A stretch of DNA of 24,000 nt from Clostridiales bacterium UBA1763 (GTDB lineage Bacteria > Bacillota > Clostridia > Oscillospirales > Oscillospiraceae): the NCBI GenBank assembly GCA_002314685.1, contig DCHB01000065.1, positions 19,007 to 43,006 of the forward strand, read 5' to 3'. The stretch's first letter is position 1. Every line of letters begins with the position of its first letter. Shown here one piece after another: positions 308-18,085 of this stretch. The position numbers and the translations under genes were made by a program. A model generated the notes under the pieces. That model made no database searches, was not told where the DNA came from, and saw nothing but the letters and a program-made list of their open reading frames with translations.

Positions 308-3111
308 ATGGCACAGAAATATGATGTTACACTGAACCTTCCCAAGACCGATTTTCCCATGCGAGCAGGTCTGCCCAAGCGCGAGCCCGAAATGCTCAAG
401 CACTGGGAGGAGCTTGATATTTATAATGAGATGCTGAAGAAAAACGAAGGCAAGCCGCTTTTTAATCTGCACGACGGCCCTCCGTTTTCCAACGGTAACA
501 TCCACATGGGTCACGCACTGAACAAGGCGCTCAAGGACTTCATCACCCGTTCCTACGCAATGCGCGGCTACTACACCCCCTACATCCCCGGCTGGGATAA
601 CCACGGTATGCCCATTGAGTCGGCTATCATCAAGGAGCAGAAGCTCAACCACAAGGCGATGAGCGTTGCCGACTTCCGTTCAGCCTGCGAGGCTTATGCT
701 GAAAAGTACATCGGCATTCAGATGCAGGGCTTCAAGCGCATGGGCGTTATCGGCGACTGGGAGCATCCCTACAAGACCATGGACAAGGGCTTTGAGGCTG
801 ACGAGGTCCGCGTATTCGGCAAGATGTACGCAAACGGTCACATCTACAAGGGACTCAAGCCCGTTTACTGGTGCGCACACGACGAGACCGCACTCGCTGA
901 GGCTGAGATTGAATATCACGACGACCCCTGCACGACTGTATATGTCAAGTTCCCCATGAACGACGATCTCGGCAAGCTGTCACACCTTGACCTTTCAAAG
1001 CTCAAGTTCGTCATCTGGACAACCACTATCTGGACTCTGCCCGGCAACCTCGCAATCGCACTGCACCCCTACGAGAGCTATGCAATCGTAAAGCCCGATT
1101 ACAGCGATGAGCTGTTCATCATGGCTGAGGCACTGACCGAGAAGGTCATGGGTATCGGCGGCTATACAAGCTATAAAATCCTCGAGGTTCACCCCGGCAG
1201 CTTCTTTGAAAATATGCTCGCCGACCACCCCTTCCTGCCTAAGACAAGCCGTCTCCTGCTCGCCGACTATGTCACCATGGACAGCGGTACGGGCTGTGTC
1301 CACACCGCACCCGGCTTCGGCGCAGAGGACTATCTCACCTGCAAATCCTACGGCATGGATATGGTCGTTCCCGTTGACGACCAGGGCAGACATACCGACT
1401 ATGCGGGCAAGTACGCAGGAATGCAGACCGAGGAATCCAACCCCATTATCCTAAACGACATGAAGGAAGCGGGCTCACTGTTCGCATCCGAGGAAATCGT
1501 CCACTCCTACCCGCACTGCTGGCGCTGCAAGCACCCGATTATCTTCCGTGCAACTCCTCAGTGGTTCTGCTCCGTTGACGGCTTCAAGGAGGAGGCTGTC
1601 AAGGCTTGTGACGATGTACGCTGGCTGCCCGCATGGGGCAAGGAGCGTCTGGGCGCAATGATTCGCGAGCGTGCCGACTGGTGCATCTCCCGTCAGCGCC
1701 GCTGGGGTCTGCCCATTCCCGTATTCTACTGCTCGGACTGCGGCAAGCCCGTATGCACCGAGGAGAGCATCGAGTCCGTCGCCTCTATCTTTGAGGAGCG
1801 CGGCTCCAACGCATGGTTCGAGCTTGAGGCAGAGGAGCTTCTGCCCAAGGCATTTGTATGCCCCCACTGCGGCGGCGTGCATTTCACCAAGGAGACCGAC
1901 ACCCTTGACGGTTGGTTCGACTCGGGCTCCACTCACTTCTGCGCAATGAAGCGTGACCAGGGCTTCTGGCCCTCCACCATGTATATTGAGGGCGGCGACC
2001 AGTACCGCGGCTGGTTCCAGTCAAGTCTGCTCGTTGCAGTCGGCGCACTCGGCATGGGCTCACCCTATAAGGAATGTCTCACCCACGGCTGGACCGTTGA
2101 CGGCGAGGGCAAGGCAATGCACAAGTCCCTCGGCAACGGCGTTGACCCCTCCGAAATCATTGCGGAGTTCGGTGCAGACCTCATCCGTCTGTGGGCAGGC
2201 TCGGCAGACTACCATGTTGATGTCCGCTGCTCAAAGGAAATCTTCAAGCAGCTTTCGCAGAACTACCTCAAGTTCCGCAACACCGCACGCTACTGCCTCG
2301 GCAATCTTGACGGCTTCGATGCCGACAAGCTCGTAAAGCCCGAGGAAATGGCAGAGCTCGACAAGCTGGGCAATCACCCGCCTGAACGCACTCATCGAGA
2401 AGGTCGCCAGCGGCATACGACAACTACGAGTACCATGTGATCTCCCACATCATAAACGATTTCTGTGTTGTCGATCTGAGCAACTTCTACCTCGACATCA
2501 TCAAGGACAGACTCTACTGCGAGGAGCGCGACGGTCTCAAGCGCCGCAGTGCACAGACCGCGCTGTACCTCATCCTCGACACGATGACCAAGATGTTTGC
2601 ACCTATCCTCGCCTTCACCTGCGACGAGATTTGGCTTGCAATGCCTCATAAGTCCTCCGACGATACCCGCAACGTTGTTCTCAACGAGATGAACAAGCCC
2701 TTCACCGAGTACGCACTCGACGATGCCGAAATGGCAAAGTGGGACGCACTCATCTCCGTGCGTAACGATGTCAACGGCGTGCTTGAGGCGGCGCGTGCCG
2801 ACAAGCGTATCGGCAAGCCCCTTGAGGCGGCAGTCACCCTGCGTGCAAAGGGCGAGAGCAAGGCTGTTGTCGAAAAGATTTCCGACATGAATCTGAGCGA
2901 GCTTCTCATCGTTTCCGAGTGCCTCATCGCCGCGGACGACGAGCCCGACGCAGACGCTGTCACGGGTACGGGCTCGGCAAACAGCGGTCTCACCGTTTCC
3001 GTCAAGGAAGCGGCAGGCGCAAAGTGCCCGCGCTGCTGGATGCACTCTGTCAAGGCAGACCCCGAAACAGGTCTTTGCCCCCGCTGCGCCGCTGTCGTCG
3101 CAAAGCTTTAA
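308..3111 (+). pseudogene. ileS: Isoleucine--tRNA ligase (IleRS, type 1 with C-terminal zinc finger); the frame is interrupted by two +1 shifts near 2366 and 2412
   Basis: ORFs 308..2440 and 2437..3111 together give a full IleRS (HMGH-type N-terminus PPFSNGNIHMGHALNK, KMSKS-like KAMHKSLGN, C-terminal CPRCW...CPRC). The junction needs three frames: ELDK (frame A), WAITRLNALIEKVAS (frame B from 2367), and AYDNYEYHVISHIINDFCVVDLSNFYLD (frame C from 2413). Confidence 0.9.
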
Positions 3112-3126
3112 TAACTATCATTTTCA

Positions 3127-3163
3127 TCAGGGACAGTTATTTGCTGTCCCTGATACTTTTTTA
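3127..3163 (+). terminator. Rho-independent terminator of ileS
   Basis: ATCAGGGACAG (3127-3137) pairs with CTGTCCCTGAT (3145-3155) around a 7-nt loop. A T-run follows at 3158-3163. Confidence 0.8.
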
Positions 3164-3360
3164 ATCTCGGTTAAACGCTTCATTTAATCGTTTTTGCGGT
3201 GTCCCGACCAGTGACATTCTGCTAAAGTTAAGATGTACCCTAACACATCGGTACACCGCATAGTTCTTCACTCATTGCGCTTCGCTCCATTCACCCCTAC
3301 GGAGTTGGATTTAGCTTGCACCCTCACTCATCACTCATCACTCATCACTCATAGTTCTTC
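3164..3360 (+). repeat. Mosaic intergenic repeat: long S module (3164-3246) plus one R unit with a TCACTCA heptamer tail
   Basis: 3164-3246 is near-identical to 20716-20797. 3272-3360 contains the core CATTCACCCCTACGG (3289-3303) and 3x TCACTCA (3325-3345), as in the units at 19699-21046. Confidence 0.85.
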
Positions 3361-3453
3361 ACTCATCTGCTCTTGACTATTTCGCTTTTTTAGTGCAAAA
3401 TAGTATAGGGAAAGAAGCTTTGTCGGCTTTGAAAAGCCAAAGGAGACAGATAA

Positions 3454-4242
3454 ATGCTATACGCTCTTATTGCCGCAATTGCTTTGATTGCGGACCAGTG
3501 GCTTAAATACTGGGTTACTGTTAATATTACTCTCAACACGGGCGATGTCGCGCTCATTCCGAGCGTCATTAAGCTTGTGAATATCCACAACAGCGGTGCC
3601 GCCTTCGGTATGCTGAGCGATTTTGCATACGCCAAGTGGTTATTCCTTGCCATCGCCGCCGTGTTTGTCGTCGTTATTATCCTCGTGCTTGCGAAAAACA
3701 CCTTCGACTCACGCTTTGCAAACTGGTGCGCCGTGTTTGCCATGGCGGGTGCCGTCGGCAACTGCATCGACCGCATTCTGTACGGCTATGTCGTTGATAT
3801 GTTCAAGCTCGAGTTCATGGATTTCGCAATCTTCAACGTCGCGGATATTTTCCTCGTTGTTGCGTGCATCGCGTTTATTCTTTACATCATCGTCGATACC
3901 TTCAAGGGCAAGGACGGGGACAAGCCCGAAAAGCAGAAAAAGCCCCGCAGGGCTGACGATGCCGAGGATGACGACTACTTCACAGCGGGCATAAACACGG
4001 CAGACCCCGACTTCCCCGAGGACGCCGTGCCCGTCAGTCTTGAGCCTGAGTCAAACGGTGATGAATTCTGGGAAAACTTCAAATCTCAGGTGCATAAGGA
4101 GGAGGCTCCCAAGGCGAAGGCAAAGCCTGCACCTGCAAAGCCCGCACCCGCACCCAAGGCAAAGCCCGCACCGAAGGTCGCGCCGAAGGAAGCGGACGAG
4201 TTTGACCTTGAGTCGATTATGGCTGAGTTTAAGGATTTATGA
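3454..4242 (+). CDS. lspA: Lipoprotein signal peptidase II (LspA) with a ~110-aa low-complexity C-terminal extension
   Basis: The N-terminal ~150 aa carry LspA motifs (NSGAAFG, GAVGNCIDR, FNVADIF). The AGGAG RBS is 8 nt upstream. The tail is acidic, then an AKP/PAP repeat. The lspA-rluD synteny is typical of Firmicutes. Confidence 0.9.
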   Translation: MLYALIAAIALIADQWLKYWVTVNITLNTGDVALIPSVIKLVNIHNSGAAFGMLSDFAYAKWLFLAIAAVFVVVIILVLAKNTFDSRFANWCAVFAMAGAVGNCIDRILYGYVVDMFKLEFMDFAIFNVADIFLVVACIAFILYIIVDTFKGKDGDKPEKQKKPRRADDAEDDDYFTAGINTADPDFPEDAVPVSLEPESNGDEFWENFKSQVHKEEAPKAKAKPAPAKPAPAPKAKPAPKVAPKEADEFDLESIMAEFKDL

Positions 4243-7975: not shown

Positions 7976-8452
7976 ATGGACGCAATAGTTGCAGTTTATT
8001 CCGATTGGGGCATTGGCTCGAGGGGCACTCAGCCCGTCGTGCTCAAGGCCGACCGCGCGCAGTTTAAGCGCGTTACAGACGGCAAAACCGTCATAGTCGG
8101 CAGACGCACCCTCGGCGATTTTCCGAACGGCAAGCCGCTTAAAAACCGCCGCAACATTGTTGTAACGAGGCAGAACATTTCAATCGAGGGTGCCGAGGTT
8201 GCGCACTCGGTTGAGGAGGCTGTCGCACTCTGCGGAGAGGATGAAGGCATCGTAATCGGCGGCGCGACCGTTTACCGCGATTTCTTCCCCCTGCTTGACC
8301 GCGTTTTTGTAACAAAAATTGAGCTTTGCCCCGAGTCCGACAGATATTTCCCCGACCTCGACAGCCTTGAGGATTGGTGTCTTACCGACGCGGGCGAGGC
8401 TATGACGGAGGACGGCATTGAATACCGCTTTGCCGTTTACGAAAGGAAGTAA
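7976..8452 (+). CDS. folA: Dihydrofolate reductase
   Basis: MDAIVAV..WGIG, VIVGRRT, NRRNIVVTR and IGGATVY are DHFR motifs. I prefer the ATG at 7976 (GAGGTG at 7966-7971). It lies immediately downstream of thyA. Confidence 0.85.
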   Translation: MDAIVAVYSDWGIGSRGTQPVVLKADRAQFKRVTDGKTVIVGRRTLGDFPNGKPLKNRRNIVVTRQNISIEGAEVAHSVEEAVALCGEDEGIVIGGATVYRDFFPLLDRVFVTKIELCPESDRYFPDLDSLEDWCLTDAGEAMTEDGIEYRFAVYERK

Positions 8453-8456
8453 GGCG

Positions 8457-9044
8457 ATGAAAAAGGCAATATGCTTTGCGCTTGCTTTGTGCTCCTGCCT
8501 GCTTGTCGGCTGTAACAAGGACGATGCCGAGGATGCAAAGCAGGTTGAGACCGTTGTGCTCGCAAAAAGTGCCTGCTACGAGATTTCCATGCTCAACGAC
8601 GACGACGGCACAAAGTACAGCTACACCGTTCTGACGCAGGACGGAGAGACGCTCGAGAGTGCTCTATGCGCTAAAAAGCCCGAGGTCAAGCCGCTTAACG
8701 ATGACCTCATCGGCATCCGCTTCTACACCTCGTCGAGCACCTTCTGCCGCTACTACGACGTTAAAAACGGGCGGGTTTCCGACTCGTATTTCGGCGCCTT
8801 CTGGGATAACGGCACACTGCTTGCATACAACGACTACGAAAGCTCATCAAAGCTTGTCGTGCGCGACATTTTCGACGCTGACGGCTATTATGCGGAGTAC
8901 GAAATAGACAGCGACGCAATGGAGCTTATAGTCAAATCCGCCGAAGAAAATGAGGACAGCACCGAGCTTTGCGTAACCTACACCCTCGGTGAAAGCGGCT
9001 GGGAGCAAACAGCCCGAATCCCGCTTGTTGAAAACGAAGAATAA
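8457..9044 (+). CDS. Hypothetical lipoprotein
   Basis: The signal peptide MKKAICFALALCSCLLVGC carries an L-V-G-C lipobox. I prefer the ATG at 8457 over the ORF-track start at 8418, which overlaps folA. I recognise no family. Confidence 0.7.
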   Translation: MKKAICFALALCSCLLVGCNKDDAEDAKQVETVVLAKSACYEISMLNDDDGTKYSYTVLTQDGETLESALCAKKPEVKPLNDDLIGIRFYTSSSTFCRYYDVKNGRVSDSYFGAFWDNGTLLAYNDYESSSKLVVRDIFDADGYYAEYEIDSDAMELIVKSAEENEDSTELCVTYTLGESGWEQTARIPLVENEE

Positions 9045-9053
9045 ATTTTTCCA

Positions 9054-9083
9054 TTGACATATTCCAAATAATATGCGTATAAT
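9054..9083 (+). promoter_or_regulatory. Near-consensus sigma-A promoter of the AT-rich islet
   Basis: TTGACA (9054-9059), an 18-nt spacer, then TATAAT (9078-9083). The predicted transcription start is near 9090. Confidence 0.6.
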
Positions 9084-9089
9084 AAACAC

Positions 9090-9256
9090 GAGGGATGTTT
9101 TATCCTGCCTTTGAAGCAGAGGCTTTGTTGGAAAGTGTCTGTGGAGGCTCTTACAGGGTTGTGTGGTTTCCTGGCGCCAACTTAGGCTTATGCCGAAAAT
9201 AAAAACACTCGATTTTAACGACTAATCGCCTCGTCTTCTATGTCGGGGCGATTTTT
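9090..9256 (+). ncRNA. Unclassified ~165-nt promoter-to-terminator transcript (candidate sRNA, cis-regulatory leader or RNA antitoxin)
   Basis: It is bounded by the promoter above and the terminator at 9225-9256. It contains local hairpins (for example GGGAT/ATCCT at 9092-9106) and a thrice-repeated AGGCT(T/C) (9120, 9145, 9184). I recognise no known riboswitch consensus. Confidence 0.45.
9225..9256 (+). terminator. Intrinsic terminator 22 nt upstream of the orphan ORF
   Basis: ATCGCCTCG (9225-9233) pairs with CGGGGCGAT (9244-9252), giving 9 bp including one G.U. The loop is 10 nt and the T-run is 9252-9256. Confidence 0.7.
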
Positions 9257-9277
9257 CGGTTTATGTGAGACAGATAT

Positions 9278-9829
9278 ATGAAAGCAATAGGAAGAACTAT
9301 CGAAATATTTGAATATTTACGAAAAAAGAAGTTCGTAATATCCATTGAAGACGGTACTCAAATTTACCTTTCGTTTTTTCCTGAGCACTATCACCATTTG
9401 GTGGGCTATCAGCATTTAACCGACCTTTCCGATATTTGTAATCCTCAGAACAAGCAAAAATTCTACAATGATGTAAAAAAACATCGAATTAGTAATGAAT
9501 ATGTTGAAAGCAGTGTAAAGTATTCGGAGATTGAAGAGCGTGTCGAAAGCTTTGACTCGATTTTAGATATTCTTTCCCCCGGAGAGGGCAAAATAATAGT
9601 AGAGTTTGATAAAACTAAACTAAATTCAAGTATTATTGCAAAATTTTATCTATACAAAAGGGTCGGAAATTCACTGTTAGGCGAACCTGTCTTCTACAAC
9701 ATTCTTTTTTTGGGCTACAATGAAACAAAGCGGGCTTATTACCCCGCAACCTATATAGTAGAACATTCAACCAGATACATAGTAAATCAAAAGCTTTTAG
9801 ACTGCACTATAACCGTTCTTGATAAATAA
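9278..9829 (+). CDS. Orphan hypothetical protein, 183 aa, AT-rich (candidate toxin/nuclease-like effector)
   Basis: This is the only long ORF in the islet. Hand-counted 60-nt samples are about 20-30% G+C, against about 55-65% in neighbouring genes. The segment IYLSFFPEHYHHLVGYQHL is reminiscent (from memory only) of BECR-fold phage nuclease domains. The RBS is weak. Confidence 0.6.
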   Translation: MKAIGRTIEIFEYLRKKKFVISIEDGTQIYLSFFPEHYHHLVGYQHLTDLSDICNPQNKQKFYNDVKKHRISNEYVESSVKYSEIEERVESFDSILDILSPGEGKIIVEFDKTKLNSSIIAKFYLYKRVGNSLLGEPVFYNILFLGYNETKRAYYPATYIVEHSTRYIVNQKLLDCTITVLDK

Positions 9830-9834
9830 ACAGG

Positions 9835-9866
9835 AAAACCACTGATTTTTCAATCGGTGGTTTTTT
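9835..9866 (+). terminator. Rho-independent terminator of the orphan ORF
   Basis: AAAACCACTGATT (9835-9847) pairs with AATCGGTGGTTTT (9852-9864). The T-run extends to 9866. Confidence 0.8.
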
Positions 9867-9867
9867 C

Positions 9868-9950
9868 AATTTCGGTTAAACGCTTTATCTAATCTATTTT
9901 GCCGATTCCCGACCGGTGTGATGAGTGATGAGTGATGAGTGATGAGTGAA
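9868..9950 (+). repeat. Short S module (9868-9917) plus 4x GTGATGA heptamers (9918-9945, inverted tail)
   Basis: AATTTCGGTTAAACGCTTTATCTAATC..CCCGACCGGTG matches the other S copies. Four perfect GTGATGA copies follow. Confidence 0.85.
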
Positions 9951-9974
9951 TAGTTTTTCTTAAACATCAAACTT

Positions 9975-10053
9975 CCTCACTCTTAGTTCATCACTCATAG
10001 TTCTTCACTCGCAAAGCGGGCTCATTTCGCTTGCGCTCCATTCACCCCTACGG
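9975..10053 (+). repeat. R unit left half (tail, GCAAAGCGGGCTCATT, core CATTCACCCCTACGG)
   Basis: 9998-10053 aligns with 19785-19835 and with the units at 20429-21046. The core 15-mer is at 10039-10053. Confidence 0.85.
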
Positions 10054-10290
10054 GTGCAGACTAAGACAAAAAAACCGTGCAAGTTTGCACCGCGGTAGCC
10101 TGTAAAGATGTGCGTGGCTGAAGTGAATAGAAAACCGCCGCAGGTGCATCGGGGGAATACCAAGTAAAGACTTTGCGGCGGAAATAGTGTGCTCAGGGGA
10201 TTCCAAAGGGTTCTCCCTTTGGTCGCGTTTCTTTTGCAACTTTTCTTTGGCGAACACAAAGAAAAGTCGAAGAAATTACAGCTGCAGTAA
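10054..10290 (-). repeat. X element copy 2 (inverted relative to copy 1)
   Basis: Its reverse complement aligns end to end with 5200-5443. Hairpins lie at 10240-10266, 10203-10222 and 10077-10090, and an A-run at 10068-10074 gives a T-run on the minus strand. Confidence 0.8.
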
Positions 10291-10320
10291 ATTCAGCAAA
10301 GAAATTTCCGCTTTCTTAAA

Positions 10321-10464
10321 CGTTCTTCACTCGTTTTGCGGGCTCATTTCGCTATCGCTCCATTCACCCCTACGGGCGTTGGATTAAGTCTGTACCGTTC
10401 ACTCATCACTCATCACTCATCGTTCTTCACTCAACTATTCACTCATCACTCATCGTTCTTCACT
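10321..10464 (+). repeat. R unit with extended TCACTCA heptamer tails
   Basis: The core 15-mer is at 10361-10375, 3x TCACTCA lie at 10399-10419, and the tail CGTTCTTCACTC is repeated. Confidence 0.85.
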
Positions 10465-10501
10465 AAAAAACAGGTGTCACGAAATGTGACACCTGTTTTT
10501 T
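10465..10501. terminator. Bidirectional hairpin terminator (serves the minus-strand PPIase gene)
   Basis: CAGGTGTCAC (10471-10480) pairs with GTGACACCTG (10486-10495). It is flanked by an A-run (10465-10470) and a T-run (10496-10501). Confidence 0.85.
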
Positions 10502-10506
10502 ATTTA

Positions 10507-11637
10507 TCACTTTGCCGAGTACTCTGTCCACGGGGTGAAGTGGAAGCCGTCGTCATCGAAGAACTGCGTGAAATCGAAGCTCTGATAGCTGAGGCTGAAT
10601 TTTGCGTAGCTGTTTATATCCCACGAATCCATGCTGCTGTCAAATTCCTCGGATGCCGCCATCTGACCGAGGGTGTAGCCGTAGGAGTTTGAAATGTCAA
10701 CATCGCTGTAAACGGTGGGCACGCGCATTATGATGTGGTAGCCGTAATCCGACTCGACAACATCGGAGACCTCGTAGTTTTTGAGTGCCTGAGTGGTTGT
10801 GGTGTATTCCTCAACCATGGTGCCCTCGGTGAAGCAGTAGCCGTTGGGATAAGAGGTCTTGCCCGGGGCCTCGCTGTACTCATCCATAAGCTCGAAGAAG
10901 CGCTCACTGCGCTCGGTGTCATCCTCTATTGCCTGAAGCTCCTTGCAGAGCTTTTCAGCGTTTGCCTTCTTTGCGGCAAGCTCATCATCGGACAGCTCCT
11001 CCTGAGTTGTGTTGCCGTCCTCGTCCTCAACGGTCTCATAGTTGAGGAACAGGATGTGTGCGCTGGTCATATATCCGTTGTTCTCGATATACTTGTTCAG
11101 AACCTCATCGCTTACCTTTTCGCCCGTCTCGCCGTAGGTCGCGGTGAACATATTGTTGAGAATGTAGTTTATCTGGCTGAGGGATTTGAAGGTTGCGAGA
11201 GTCAGACCCTGCTCGTTGAGAGCCTCTGCAAACGCGGCATCGGGATCGTCGCTTTCGCTGTAATTTTCCTTAATAGACTCTATGTTCGAGTCGATTTCGG
11301 CGAGCTGTTCCTCGGTGGGGGATGCGTTCATTGCCTTGCCCTTGCTTACGATGAGGCAGCCCTGAGCCGCATTGAACAGAGCCTCCTGAATGCACCATTC
11401 GGCATTGGTTATGCTCTTATCGTAAATGCAGGCGCCGTCCCAATCAACAGCGGAGCCCGTGCTCGAGGAATAGTAGCTTTCAAGCGTTGATGATGCCGAG
11501 TAGAGATAGTACATAAATTCATCCCATGAGACGTTTACTCCTTCAACGCTCATGACGGCATCCTTATCCGTGCTGCAGCCTGCAAGACAGCCGAGGCACA
11601 GTACGAGTGCGAGTATTACCGCGACAGTTTTTTTCAT
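10507..11637 (-). CDS. PrsA-like lipoprotein peptidylprolyl isomerase (parvulin/PpiC domain)
   Basis: The signal peptide MKKTVAVILALVLCLGCLAGC has a lipobox. The C-terminal parvulin signature is VVESDYGYHIIMRV. I prefer the ATG at 11637 (GGAGA, 8 nt spacer) over the ORF-track start at 11673. It lies downstream of mfd, as in many Clostridia. Confidence 0.8.
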   Translation of the reverse strand: MKKTVAVILALVLCLGCLAGCSTDKDAVMSVEGVNVSWDEFMYYLYSASSTLESYYSSSTGSAVDWDGACIYDKSITNAEWCIQEALFNAAQGCLIVSKGKAMNASPTEEQLAEIDSNIESIKENYSESDDPDAAFAEALNEQGLTLATFKSLSQINYILNNMFTATYGETGEKVSDEVLNKYIENNGYMTSAHILFLNYETVEDEDGNTTQEELSDDELAAKKANAEKLCKELQAIEDDTERSERFFELMDEYSEAPGKTSYPNGYCFTEGTMVEEYTTTTQALKNYEVSDVVESDYGYHIIMRVPTVYSDVDISNSYGYTLGQMAASEEFDSSMDSWDINSYAKFSLSYQSFDFTQFFDDDGFHFTPWTEYSAK

Positions 11638-15369: not shown

Positions 15370-15424
15370 GAGTTAGTTAATCAAGATGGGGAAAATTTGC
15401 TTTTATACAGGAGTGCTTAAATAT

Positions 15425-16732
15425 ATGAATTCTATGAACGATATATGGGAGGCAGTGCTTGAGGTGCTCGGCAGAGAGCTTACGCCGACCGCTATTTCAA
15501 CATGGTTTGCCGACTGTCAGCCTATCGATTTGAACGACTCCACCTTCGTTGTTCACACTCCCTCGGAGTTTAAGAGAAACATCATTCTCACCCGCTTTGC
15601 AGACACCATTAAGCAGTCTCTTTCGGATATTTTTTCAACCGACATTAACCTTATGGTGCTCGCAGGCGAGGAGTTCGGCGACTATCAGGCGTGCAAGCCC
15701 GACGATGACCCTCTGCCCGAAATGGCGGGCTACACCTTTGACAGATTTATAGTCGGCAACTCAAATCGCTTTGCTCACAATGCCGCCTATGCCGTATCGC
15801 AGAAGCCCGGCAGTGCTTACAATCCGCTGTTTATTTACGGCAACTCGGGACTCGGCAAGACTCACCTTCTGCTCGCTATCGGTCAAGCTATTCGCGAAAG
15901 AGAGCCCGCCACAAAAATCGCCTACATCAAGGGCGACGATTTCACAAATCAGCTTCTCAAATCCATTAAAGAGGGTACGGGCGAGGAGTTCAGACTCAAA
16001 TACAGAAACGTCGATTTGTTCCTCGTTGACGATATTCAGTTCATCGCGGGCAAGCAGGCAACGCAGGAGGAATTCTTCCACACCTTCAACAATATCTACG
16101 AGGCGGGGCATCAGATAGTTATTACCTCCGACCGTCCGCCCATTGATATGAGCCTTCTCGATGACCGTCTCATGTCCCGTTTTCAGGGCGGACTCATGGC
16201 GGATATTCAGCCGCCCGACATTGAAACGAGAATGGTCATCACCCGCGCAAAGGCGGCACAGCTCGGACTCGTGCTTGAGGATGATGCAGTGGCTTATATA
16301 GCCGAGACCATTACCACCAACGTCAGGCAGATTGAGGGCGTTATAAAGCGTCTCACAGCCTACAAGGAGATACTTGACAGCAAGATAGATACAGCCGCAG
16401 TCAAGCGTGCCATAAAGGATGTTGTGCGCATCGGCACATTTATCCCCTCTCCTCAGCTTATTATCCGCGAAAGCGCACTTTACTACTCTCTCAAGGAGGA
16501 GGATCTGCGCGGACAGAACCGTTCCAAAAATACCGCGGTTGCAAGACAGATTGCAATGTATCTCATCCGCACACTGACAAATCTTTCGCTCAAGGAGATA
16601 GGCGCCGAGTTTGAGGACAGAAATCACTCGACGGTGCTTTCATCCATCAAGAAGATTGAGGACATGATCAAGACCGATCCAGCTATGGCGGCAACGGTTC
16701 GAGACATCACCTCAAACATAAATTCGAACTGA
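15425..16732 (+). CDS. dnaA: Chromosomal replication initiator DnaA
   Basis: It aligns along its length with Bacillus-type DnaA (YTFDRFIVGNSNRFAH, GNSGLGKTHLL, LVDDIQFIAGK, TSDRPP, the C-terminal DNA-binding helix RNHSTVLSS). Start is ATG 15425 or 15434. The ORF-track start at 15386 is an unlikely extension. Confidence 0.9.
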   Translation: MNSMNDIWEAVLEVLGRELTPTAISTWFADCQPIDLNDSTFVVHTPSEFKRNIILTRFADTIKQSLSDIFSTDINLMVLAGEEFGDYQACKPDDDPLPEMAGYTFDRFIVGNSNRFAHNAAYAVSQKPGSAYNPLFIYGNSGLGKTHLLLAIGQAIREREPATKIAYIKGDDFTNQLLKSIKEGTGEEFRLKYRNVDLFLVDDIQFIAGKQATQEEFFHTFNNIYEAGHQIVITSDRPPIDMSLLDDRLMSRFQGGLMADIQPPDIETRMVITRAKAAQLGLVLEDDAVAYIAETITTNVRQIEGVIKRLTAYKEILDSKIDTAAVKRAIKDVVRIGTFIPSPQLIIRESALYYSLKEEDLRGQNRSKNTAVARQIAMYLIRTLTNLSLKEIGAEFEDRNHSTVLSSIKKIEDMIKTDPAMAATVRDITSNINSN

Positions 16733-16978
16733 TTTTTACCCCCGAGTTTTCAACAATCGGATTTATTAAAACCTGTTACCGTATGTTGAAACTCAAAACC
16801 GCCTGTTTTGCCTGTTGAAAACGCGAAATTTGTGCACATTTTTGTCAACACGGAAAATTGAGCGTTATCAAGCGTTTCGGGCACTTTCCCACAAGTTTTT
16901 TTTCTACTGCTATTACTACTGAATTATTTTGATTTATAGCTTTATTTAATTGTGATTTTTTAATCGGGAGGAATTGAA
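16733..16978. other. oriC (dnaA-dnaN intergenic origin): degenerate DnaA boxes, DnaA-trio-like trinucleotide run, AT-rich unwinding region
   Basis: TTTTCAACA lies at 16747-16755 and inverted at 16813-16821. Other boxes are GTTTCAACA (inverted, 16784-16792), TTGTCAACA (16842-16850) and TTTCCCACA (16885-16893). CTA CTG CTA TTA CTA CTG runs 16904-16921, followed by an AT-rich stretch at 16922-16962. Confidence 0.65.
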
Positions 16979-18085
16979 ATGAAACTCACCTGCGAAAAGC
17001 ACGTTCTTCAGTCTGCCGTTGCCGTCAGCGCGAGGGCTGCGGCATCAAAAAGCCCCATTCCCACACTCGAGGGTATTCTCCTTGAGGCGGGCGAAAGCCT
17101 GAGAGTTACGGGCTATGACCTTAAAAAGGGTATCTATACAAATATTGAGGCTGAGGTTACTCAGCCGGGCTCAATAGTTTTGGATGCAAAGCTTTTCGGC
17201 GAGATGGTAAGACGAATGCCCGACGGTATGATTTCCATTGACTGCGATGAGCAGAACATGACAACCGTTAAATGCGGAAAAACTGAGTTCAGCTTTATGG
17301 GCATGGATTCCGAGGAATATCCCGAGCTTCCCTCCGTTGACGGTCTCAAGACCTACGAAATCGAGCAGGGCATTTTGAAGAGCATGATCAATCAGAGCAT
17401 ATTTGCCGTCAGCGACAATGATGCACGCCCCGTTTACACGGGCTCGATGTTTGAAATAGAAAACGGCGTTCTGACCTTGGTATCCGTTGACGGCTACCGT
17501 CTTGCACTGCGCCGCGAAAAGATCGAAGGTCCCGAGGAGCATAACGAGTTTATAGTTCCCGGTGCCGCGCTTGTTGACTTGGAGAGAATTTCCGCAACAG
17601 ACTCCGAGGAAAAGATTAAAATTTCCGTCGGCGGAAATCATGTTTCCTTCACAGTCGGCGACACGGTTATCGTTTCCCGCAGACTCGAGGGCGACTTCCT
17701 TAATTACAGAAAGGCACTGCCCGAGAATTTCAAATTTACGGTCAAGGTAAATCGCTCGGAAATGCTCAGAGCAGTTGACCGCGTTGTGCTTATTGTTGAC
17801 GAGAAAACTAAAAATCCCGTGCGTCTTTGCTTCAATGAGGGCTTTATCGACTGCCTGTGCAAAACTCCCATCGGTAAGGCGGAGGATGTCTGCTTCTGCG
17901 AGGGTAACGGCGAGGGCATGGAGATAGGCTTCAACGGCAAATATCTCATGGACGCACTCAAGGCGGCACCCGCCGAGGAAATTTATGTGTGCCTCAACAC
18001 AAACTCATCGCCCTGCGTGTTCCTGCCCGCAGATGAAAGCGACAAGTTTAAGTTCATGATTTTGCCGATAAGACTCAGAGCATAA
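16979..18085 (+). CDS. dnaN: DNA polymerase III beta sliding clamp
   Basis: The 368-aa product has a typical N-terminus (MKLTCEKHVLQSAVAVSARAA..PIPTLEGILLEA) and a C-terminal MILPIRL motif. The GGGAGG RBS precedes it, and it lies downstream of dnaA. Confidence 0.9.
   Translation: MKLTCEKHVLQSAVAVSARAAASKSPIPTLEGILLEAGESLRVTGYDLKKGIYTNIEAEVTQPGSIVLDAKLFGEMVRRMPDGMISIDCDEQNMTTVKCGKTEFSFMGMDSEEYPELPSVDGLKTYEIEQGILKSMINQSIFAVSDNDARPVYTGSMFEIENGVLTLVSVDGYRLALRREKIEGPEEHNEFIVPGAALVDLERISATDSEEKIKISVGGNHVSFTVGDTVIVSRRLEGDFLNYRKALPENFKFTVKVNRSEMLRAVDRVVLIVDEKTKNPVRLCFNEGFIDCLCKTPIGKAEDVCFCEGNGEGMEIGFNGKYLMDALKAAPAEEIYVCLNTNSSPCVFLPADESDKFKFMILPIRLRA

Follow-up and report, generated by a model that had tools for sequence, protein, structure and literature searches.

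The window analysed here, a stretch of 24,000 nucleotides of Clostridiales bacterium UBA1763 (contig DCHB01000065.1, positions 19,007 to 43,006), contains an islet of low G+C content at about 9045-9866. This islet is a self-contained, horizontally mobile two-component cassette that associates a structured RNA, drum, with a gene of the PBECR4 protein family. Its layout is not a product of chance, because every homologous locus that was examined shows the parts in one and the same order, from the promoter through a 5' hairpin, drum, a second hairpin, and the ribosome-binding region to the PBECR4 open reading frame (ORF). We tentatively favour, with a confidence a little short of even, a type III-like pair in which drum would be the cognate RNA inhibitor of a PBECR4 ribonuclease (RNase) toxin, by analogy with the AbiF/RCd22 system.

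Parts of the islet

The islet and the elements of its RNA are arranged as follows.

9054-9083, forward strand: sigma-70-type promoter (-35 box TTGACA at 9054-9059, 18-nucleotide spacer, -10 box TATAAT at 9078-9083)
9092-9106, forward strand: 5'-terminal hairpin GGGAU/AUCCU, with which the predicted transcript opens; not covered by the Rfam drum model
9106-9213, forward strand: drum RNA (Rfam RF02958), matched over model positions 1-112 of 112 with 56.3 bits (gathering score 43) and E 2.7e-8
9106-9109/9146-9149, forward strand: Rfam helix P1 of drum
9116-9126/9132-9142, forward strand: Rfam helix P2 of drum
9127-9131 with 9177-9181, forward strand: drum pseudoknot, GUUGG in the P2 loop with CCAAC
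9156-9158/9169-9171, forward strand: small helix of drum
9163-9165/9206-9208, forward strand: Rfam helix P3 of drum
9185-9187/9192-9194, forward strand: Rfam helix P4 of drum
9224-9256, forward strand: intrinsic terminator between drum and the ORF (10-bp GC-rich stem 9224-9233/9244-9253, 10-nucleotide loop, U5 at 9252-9256)
9267-9274, forward strand: purine-rich ribosome-binding region GAGACAGA, 3 nucleotides before the ATG
9278-9829, forward strand: 183-residue ORF of the PBECR4 family, with its ATG 21 nucleotides after the T-run and no in-frame start further upstream
9835-9866, forward strand: ORF terminator (14-15 bp stem and U6; -16.9 kcal/mol, z = -5.6), the right end of the islet

The original prediction, made by a model from the letters of the window, described a strong promoter, a short terminated transcript, and an orphan ORF expressed by read-through. 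The promoter is present and perfect: it is the sole 12/12 consensus match in 8300-10800, for a chance expectation, by our own arithmetic, of about 1e-3 such promoters with a 16-18-nucleotide spacer per 2.5 kb and two strands. Transcription is predicted to start near 9089-9091. The terminator, with its strong hairpin and T-run, was also found where it had been placed (-21.5 kcal/mol, z = -5.4 relative to shuffled sequences). The ORF has the expected 183 residues and the expected lack of room for a promoter of its own, but the gap that precedes it is of 21 nucleotides instead of 22. The islet is indeed poor in G+C, although the figures first given (20-30% against 55-65%) were too extreme: the values are 33-36% across 9250-9999 and 51-55% in the flanking genes, or in summary 34% against 53-55%. 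As had been remarked, the RNA lacks tandem repeats, and neither these nor other direct repeats were found inside 9085-9262.

The same prediction left a choice between a new RNA-protein pair and an unrecognised riboswitch, which did not hold for the RNA, a published one. Our copy of drum matches the Rfam family over its full length, and scores 108.6 bits with the covariance model built in this analysis. The description of the family is due to Weinberg et al. (2017, NAR 45:10811, PMC5737381), who, in the parts of their article that concern drum, report a 3' terminator and a 'compelling association' with a nearby protein, whose gene flanks the RNA on either side and in either orientation. These parts also place drum among a small set of bacterial RNAs for which conservation points to a sophisticated biochemical role, judge it to be an improbable riboswitch or ribozyme, and suggest a 'biochemically challenging task' (PMC5737381).

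The helices and the pseudoknot of drum are backed by covariation, the check that the original prediction had proposed for the upstream RNA. Among 30 distinct sequences, 85-89% of the cells in the helices are paired, compared with 33-49% when the partners are slid by 1-3 columns, the paired percentage being somewhat inflated by a structural alignment fitted to the drum model. Compensatory changes occur at 13-18 pairs, the count of 18 including a pseudoknot. In the pseudoknot itself, changes on both sides were found at 5 of the 6 pairs across loci, with variants such as GUCAAG/CUUGAC, CUCUGAG/CUCAGA, and GCUGGA/UCCAGC. The 5' hairpin is weak in the window copy (-4 kcal/mol, z = -1.6). Inspection by eye revealed a hairpin of 4-6 bp at the equivalent place in all loci inspected, with arms that vary and stay complementary (GGAC/GUCC, GGAAG/CUUCC, GAGGA/UCCUC, GGAGC/GCUCC); it may stabilise the 5' end of the RNA.

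There is no conserved ORF in the leader: the longest ones encode 0-52 residues in differing frames and with differing sequences, and are absent in several loci. The conserved element of the leader is thus an RNA and not a small protein, since the pairs covary and no leader ORF is conserved. A type II toxin-antitoxin system with a small-protein antitoxin in the leader was rejected for want of a conserved small ORF beside the gene.

The protein matches PBECR4 (Pfam PF18813) at 43.6 bits (cut-off 27, E 5.6e-11), its sole Pfam match above the cut-off, and the family is matched by 27 of 29 diverse relatives (best E 3.1e-28). This bears out the likeness to BECR-fold nucleases suggested in the original prediction. 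The protein family counts 832 representatives after clustering at 50% (E<=1e-3), most of which stand alone and have about 180 residues. PBECR4 was defined by Iyer, Burroughs, Anand, de Souza, and Aravind (2017, J Bacteriol, PMC5512222), whose text, in the portions considered here, presents the endoribonuclease activity as a prediction and the domain as occurring both in polyvalent proteins of phages and conjugative elements and as solo genes. The AlphaFold2 model of the window protein is confident, with a predicted local distance difference test score (pLDDT) of 92, and shows five strands after a helix (35-42) that bears the invariant His, a secondary structure that fits the family definition. 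As a member of this family, the protein is predicted to be a metal-independent BECR-fold RNase.

Six residues are invariant across the 29 diverse relatives (F33, H40, G43, D49, R88, and Q171) and three are nearly so (L47, S79, and Y167). Judging from this conservation, H40, R88, D49, and Q171 would plausibly suit a metal-independent (His/Arg) RNase site of the kind defined for PBECR (PMC5512222). A candidate for the conserved Ser/Thr of strand 4 is S164, which is nearly invariant in the close subfamily but not family-wide; across the wider family, the polar positions that are conserved are S79, Y167, and Q171. Searches of catalogues of known defence systems gave no PADLOC or NCBIfam match for the window protein and, in PHROGs, only a family of unknown function. 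The phage and plasmid databases gave no match for it either; a distant member of the family matched Enterococcus plasmids.

Association of drum and PBECR4 across loci

We collected loci through the relatives of the protein: 12 from genomes, 1 viral, and 38 from metagenomes, making 52 sources with the window. This way of collecting them would miss drum RNAs that are orphans or lie in the opposite orientation, like those of the 2017 paper. With the Rfam model, 10 of the 12 genome loci have a drum hit that exceeds the gathering score. A covariance model derived from the Rfam hits detects drum in all 52 sources, always on the strand of the ORF and ending 54-77 nucleotides before the start codon. 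In nearly all loci, a TTGACA...TATAAT/TATACT pair precedes drum by about 45-50 nucleotides, a few having a degenerate -35 box.

The association extends to remote relatives. A drum-like RNA occupies the equivalent place in six distant members of the family (profile E 1e-14 to 1e-26), most of these RNAs scoring below the Rfam threshold. One distant member is a polyvalent protein of 900 residues (PBECR4, DUF3991, Toprim, and ArdC-N) with the PBECR4 domain at the N-terminus. At a conjugative-element locus (L056, 1049-1122 and 1949-4814), a drum-like RNA precedes the gene of the 900-residue polyvalent protein, and a RAGATH-18 RNA (RF03064, 54.9 bits) lies about 0.9 kb upstream, adjoining RadC. In Enterococcus conjugative plasmids, e.g. 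pV662optrA, drum (Rfam 51.4 bits) is found 54 nucleotides upstream of a gene annotated as "PBECR4 domain-containing protein", in a module that adjoins TIR, DUF6414, and AAA genes. The only copy lacking drum is a longer PBECR4 gene (312 residues) in the Enterococcus faecium plasmid pNB2354_1 (L073, NC_020208.1 9587-11936). It lies between IS1251 and ISEf1, and IS1251 occupies the exact place of the promoter and drum.

Overall, drum and PBECR4 co-occur at a fixed spacing, with a single exception among about 60 loci, in assemblies of Clostridia, Enterococcus, Treponema, Bacteroidota, and Chloroflexota and in differing genomic contexts. The original prediction would have fallen had homologs of the ORF never carried a conserved upstream RNA, and on this point it clearly stands. 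These data also bear on whether the two are unrelated neighbours, drum being a small RNA that acts in trans on other targets and happens to lie beside a foreign gene. The Rfam class of drum ('Gene; sRNA') and the presence of its own promoter and terminator agree with this idea, but such neighbours would not be expected to keep a fixed spacing across phyla and contexts, nor would the ORF be devoid of a promoter of its own. Because of the linkage, we regard this explanation as effectively refuted and give it almost no credence.

No paper mentioning both drum and PBECR4 was found in the literature searched, and functional work on either in the searchable literature was limited to the 2017 papers and one mention in an RNA sequencing study. 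The RNA paper of 2017 came before the Pfam family PBECR4. An explicit connection of drum with this predicted RNase may thus be new and, possibly, so are the strictness and breadth of the architecture made of RNA, terminator, and gene.

The modules are found at a prophage end after holin/amidase genes, on conjugative plasmids beside TIR/AAA genes, and, at various sites of the chromosome, as solitary islets. These contexts are typical of toxin-antitoxin or defence cargo. The window module, from an uncultured Clostridia-type genome, is some 5.5 kb away from dnaA, as judged from the correspondence with locus L013. Both the islet and the P0007 homolog (L069-L072) are within a few kb of the origin-proximal cluster dnaA/dnaN/recF/gyrBA, at different insertion sites; this proximity may be a coincidence. 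The cluster corresponds to about 15386-18085 in the window (offset from L013).

Directly 3' of the islet are arrays of heptamers: (GTGATGA)x4.6 at 9918-9949 and the inverted (TCACTCA)n at 9973-10010 and 10398-10464. A 55-nucleotide direct repeat (10000-10054 and 10322-10376, 89% identical) is bracketed by these arrays, and a perfect 17-nucleotide inverted repeat comes after them at 10464-10502. The arrays of 9918-10480 look like a separate repeat or an element akin to miniature inverted-repeat transposable elements, and correspond to the 'repeat family' of the original prediction.

How drum could act on PBECR4

The position of the terminator suggests how the two components would be expressed. 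The start of the ORF is 5-41 nucleotides after the hairpin across loci, which is too little space for a promoter. The PBECR4 ORF is therefore expected, from this arrangement, to be translated only from transcripts that read through the drum terminator. All 23 representative loci have, after drum, a GC-rich hairpin of 9-14 bp with energies of -12 to -24 kcal/mol, usually with 4-8 U thereafter. In one clade, the U-tract is weak or absent (L005, L006, and L047), and a hairpin without U-tract, e.g. GGGCGAUAAUACUAUG, was noted for L005, L006, L024, L047, and L017; the strong hairpin is kept, with compensatory changes. This could reflect either weak termination or another role of the hairpin. A motif resembling GAGAnAGAG recurs ahead of the ATG in homologous loci, a similarity seen by eye that is weak evidence.

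Such an arrangement brings to mind a cis-acting leader, in which drum would be an aptamer, i.e., a riboswitch or an autoregulatory site for PBECR4 or another factor, that tunes read-through or translation without inhibiting anything in trans. It is always in the 5' leader, on the strand of the ORF and at a fixed 54-77 nucleotides from the ATG, its complex pseudoknotted fold has many invariant unpaired nucleotides, as riboswitch aptamers do, and a terminator separates it from the ORF. However, no conserved antiterminator was found in the 23 loci: by a heuristic comparison of duplex energies that ignores pseudoknots, duplexes between the 5' arm of the terminator and drum were no better than those of shuffled arms (z between -3.9 and +1.9, near 0 for the most part), and the sites that scored best lay at inconsistent positions. 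A terminator/antiterminator expression platform is thus unsupported, and a classical riboswitch of that type is not favoured. The terminator stems are also very strong, and one clade retains the hairpin while losing the U-tract. Finally, the passages on drum in Weinberg et al. (PMC5737381) hold a riboswitch to be improbable, and tandem modules with divergent drum variants (see below) fit the recognition of a cognate protein better than that of a shared metabolite. We therefore consider a purely cis-acting leader unlikely, while taking it more seriously than the other alternatives. Autoregulation through binding of PBECR4 to drum would be compatible with inhibition of the protein by the RNA.

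We favour drum as an inhibitor because the order of the parts matches that of type III toxin-antitoxin loci and of the dissected AbiF(Cd)/RCd22 pair. The mechanism could be as follows. A single strong constitutive promoter would drive an RNA of about 165 nucleotides made of the 5' hairpin, the doubly pseudoknotted drum fold, and the terminator hairpin. The terminator would set an excess of drum over PBECR4 protein, and the abundant RNA would bind its cognate protein, a predicted RNase toxin, and hold it inactive. If drum synthesis dropped or the RNA were degraded, e.g. upon phage-induced shut-off of transcription or loss of the element, free RNase would appear and could cleave RNAs of the cell or of the invader. 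What the analysis shows is which RNA and which protein family are involved, how the RNA is structured, that it is strictly linked to the gene, how promoter, terminator, and ORF are laid out, and that the whole is mobile; we infer the RNase activity, the toxicity, the binding of RNA to protein, the inhibition, and the role in defence or in maintenance of the element.

Two observations on the evolution of the modules bear on this scheme. First, two loci carry two complete drum-PBECR4 modules in tandem (2824-3540 and 3660-4464 in L023, 340-1056 and 1238-1350 in L005). A separate promoter, 5' hairpin, drum variant, and terminator belong to each module, and identity between the PBECR4 paralogs is just 24%. 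With the Rfam model, the second type of drum in these loci reaches 82 bits, a better fit than that of the window type (56 bits). Judging from their divergence, such tandem modules are as expected for cognate pairs that would not cross-react. Second, the PBECR4 ORF was repeatedly inactivated in one common gut lineage (L044-L052, with L050 at 3001-3360 and L045 around 3245-3300 as examples) by a premature TAG, a 1-nucleotide insertion, or a C-terminal frameshift. In another form of decay, unrelated DNA with an ORF on the opposite strand replaces everything after about codon 79. In spite of this decay, the promoter, drum, and terminator of these copies are 100% identical. This asymmetry fits a toxin and is supporting evidence: drum persists beside decayed ORFs, and the sole ORF without drum is the one where IS1251 was inserted (L073).

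The same data are relevant to a ribonucleoprotein, in which the PBECR4 RNase would depend on drum for its activation or targeting, the RNA being its cofactor, scaffold, or specificity subunit. The strict linkage, the apparent co-divergence of RNA and protein subtypes, and the probable excess of drum over the protein would suit such a complex, as would the 'biochemically challenging task' evoked in the passages on drum (PMC5737381). Yet the alignment has no variable unpaired segment that resembles a guide, variation being compensatory or located in the P4 hairpin, and repeated decay of the ORF beside an intact drum fits counter-selection of a toxin better. We know of no precedent for BECR RNases activated by RNA, which we also count against this explanation. 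All in all, it seems rather improbable.

If drum does inhibit PBECR4, it could serve as antitoxin in RNA-protein systems, of the toxin-antitoxin or abortive-infection kind, that would form a class of their own, where a non-repetitive, doubly pseudoknotted RNA of about 110 nucleotides directly neutralises a BECR-fold RNase. We put this forward as a possibility, slightly more doubtful than the inhibition as such. If true, an Rfam family that has been an orphan for nine years would gain a function, and the range of RNA-antitoxin systems would no longer end at repeat arrays and ToxN-like toxins. Even polyvalent proteins of conjugative elements with an N-terminal PBECR4 domain would be kept inactive by an RNA encoded in cis as long as they stay in the donor cell, and mobile elements of gut Firmicutes would have one of their widespread defence or maintenance modules annotated. 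The identity of the partner gene, the conserved layout, and the match with AbiF/RCd22 make the function of drum directly testable, and cultured hosts exist (Enterococcus conjugative plasmids).

Comparison with known systems

The window RNA is a member of the drum family, with a full-length match above the gathering score, the same helices, a Rho-independent terminator, and a single family of nearby proteins. Structurally it shows no difference from the published family. The collected loci differ from the published description, which, in the passages on drum, allows the gene on either side and in either orientation (PMC5737381), in that the RNA is strictly upstream and co-oriented. They also contain a 5' hairpin and many divergent drum variants that fall outside the Rfam model or threshold. 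The same article groups drum, in the part consulted, with the motifs called DUF3800-I and skipping-rope, which share highly conserved folds, 3' terminators, and an association with one protein family each (Weinberg et al. 2017). The RNAs and proteins of these motifs differ from drum and PBECR4. A relationship with DUF3800 has no support at the level of sequence, as none of the 29 family members matches PF12686 at E<=1.

The window protein scores above the PF18813 cut-off and has, in its predicted structure, the invariant His helix before a five-stranded sheet. On phages and conjugative elements the family comes in stand-alone and polyvalent forms, whereas the window gene is in a solitary chromosomal cassette behind a structured RNA. 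PBECR domains are treated as injected offensive effectors in PMC5512222, and an associated RNA is absent from the passages of that article considered here.

The islet resembles the type III systems (ToxIN, AbiQ/antiQ, CptIN, and TenpIN) in its succession of promoter, RNA, Rho-independent terminator, and RNase gene expressed by read-through, as well as in its pseudoknotted RNA and mobile modules. The type III-like layout of the original prediction is thus real, and conserved in about 60 loci, but the repeat-array antitoxin and the ToxN-family toxin are both lacking. Type III antitoxins are arrays of 34-50-nucleotide repeats processed by the toxin, whereas drum is a single complex fold of about 110 nucleotides, and the toxin family and predicted fold of the window protein are BECR and not ToxN-like. 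The protein does not belong to the ToxN/AbiQ, CptN, or TenpN families (PBECR4 is its only Pfam match above the cut-off and PADLOC gave none), in line with the original remark that it resembled neither ToxN nor AbiQ. With no repeat array and no ToxN-like toxin, the islet is outside any known type III family, and our claim is that it works like these systems, not that it is one of them.

The closest architectural precedent is AbiF(Cd)/RCd22 of the Clostridioides difficile phage phi027 (Saunier et al., bioRxiv 10.1101/2025.04.15.648962), in which a SigA promoter is followed by an RNA of about 100-130 nucleotides, a terminator, and a toxin gene without promoter. For that pair, both a short and a read-through transcript were mapped, and direct binding of the RNA neutralises the toxin, in cis as well as in trans (bioRxiv 10.1101/2025.04.15.648962). 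The components are different: the protein of AbiF(Cd)/RCd22 is of the Abi_2/AbiD/F type (HEPN/Cas13-like) and its RNA consists of two abiF stem-loops. Yet RCd22, like the leader of the window gene, carries a motif from the 2017 collection of Weinberg et al.

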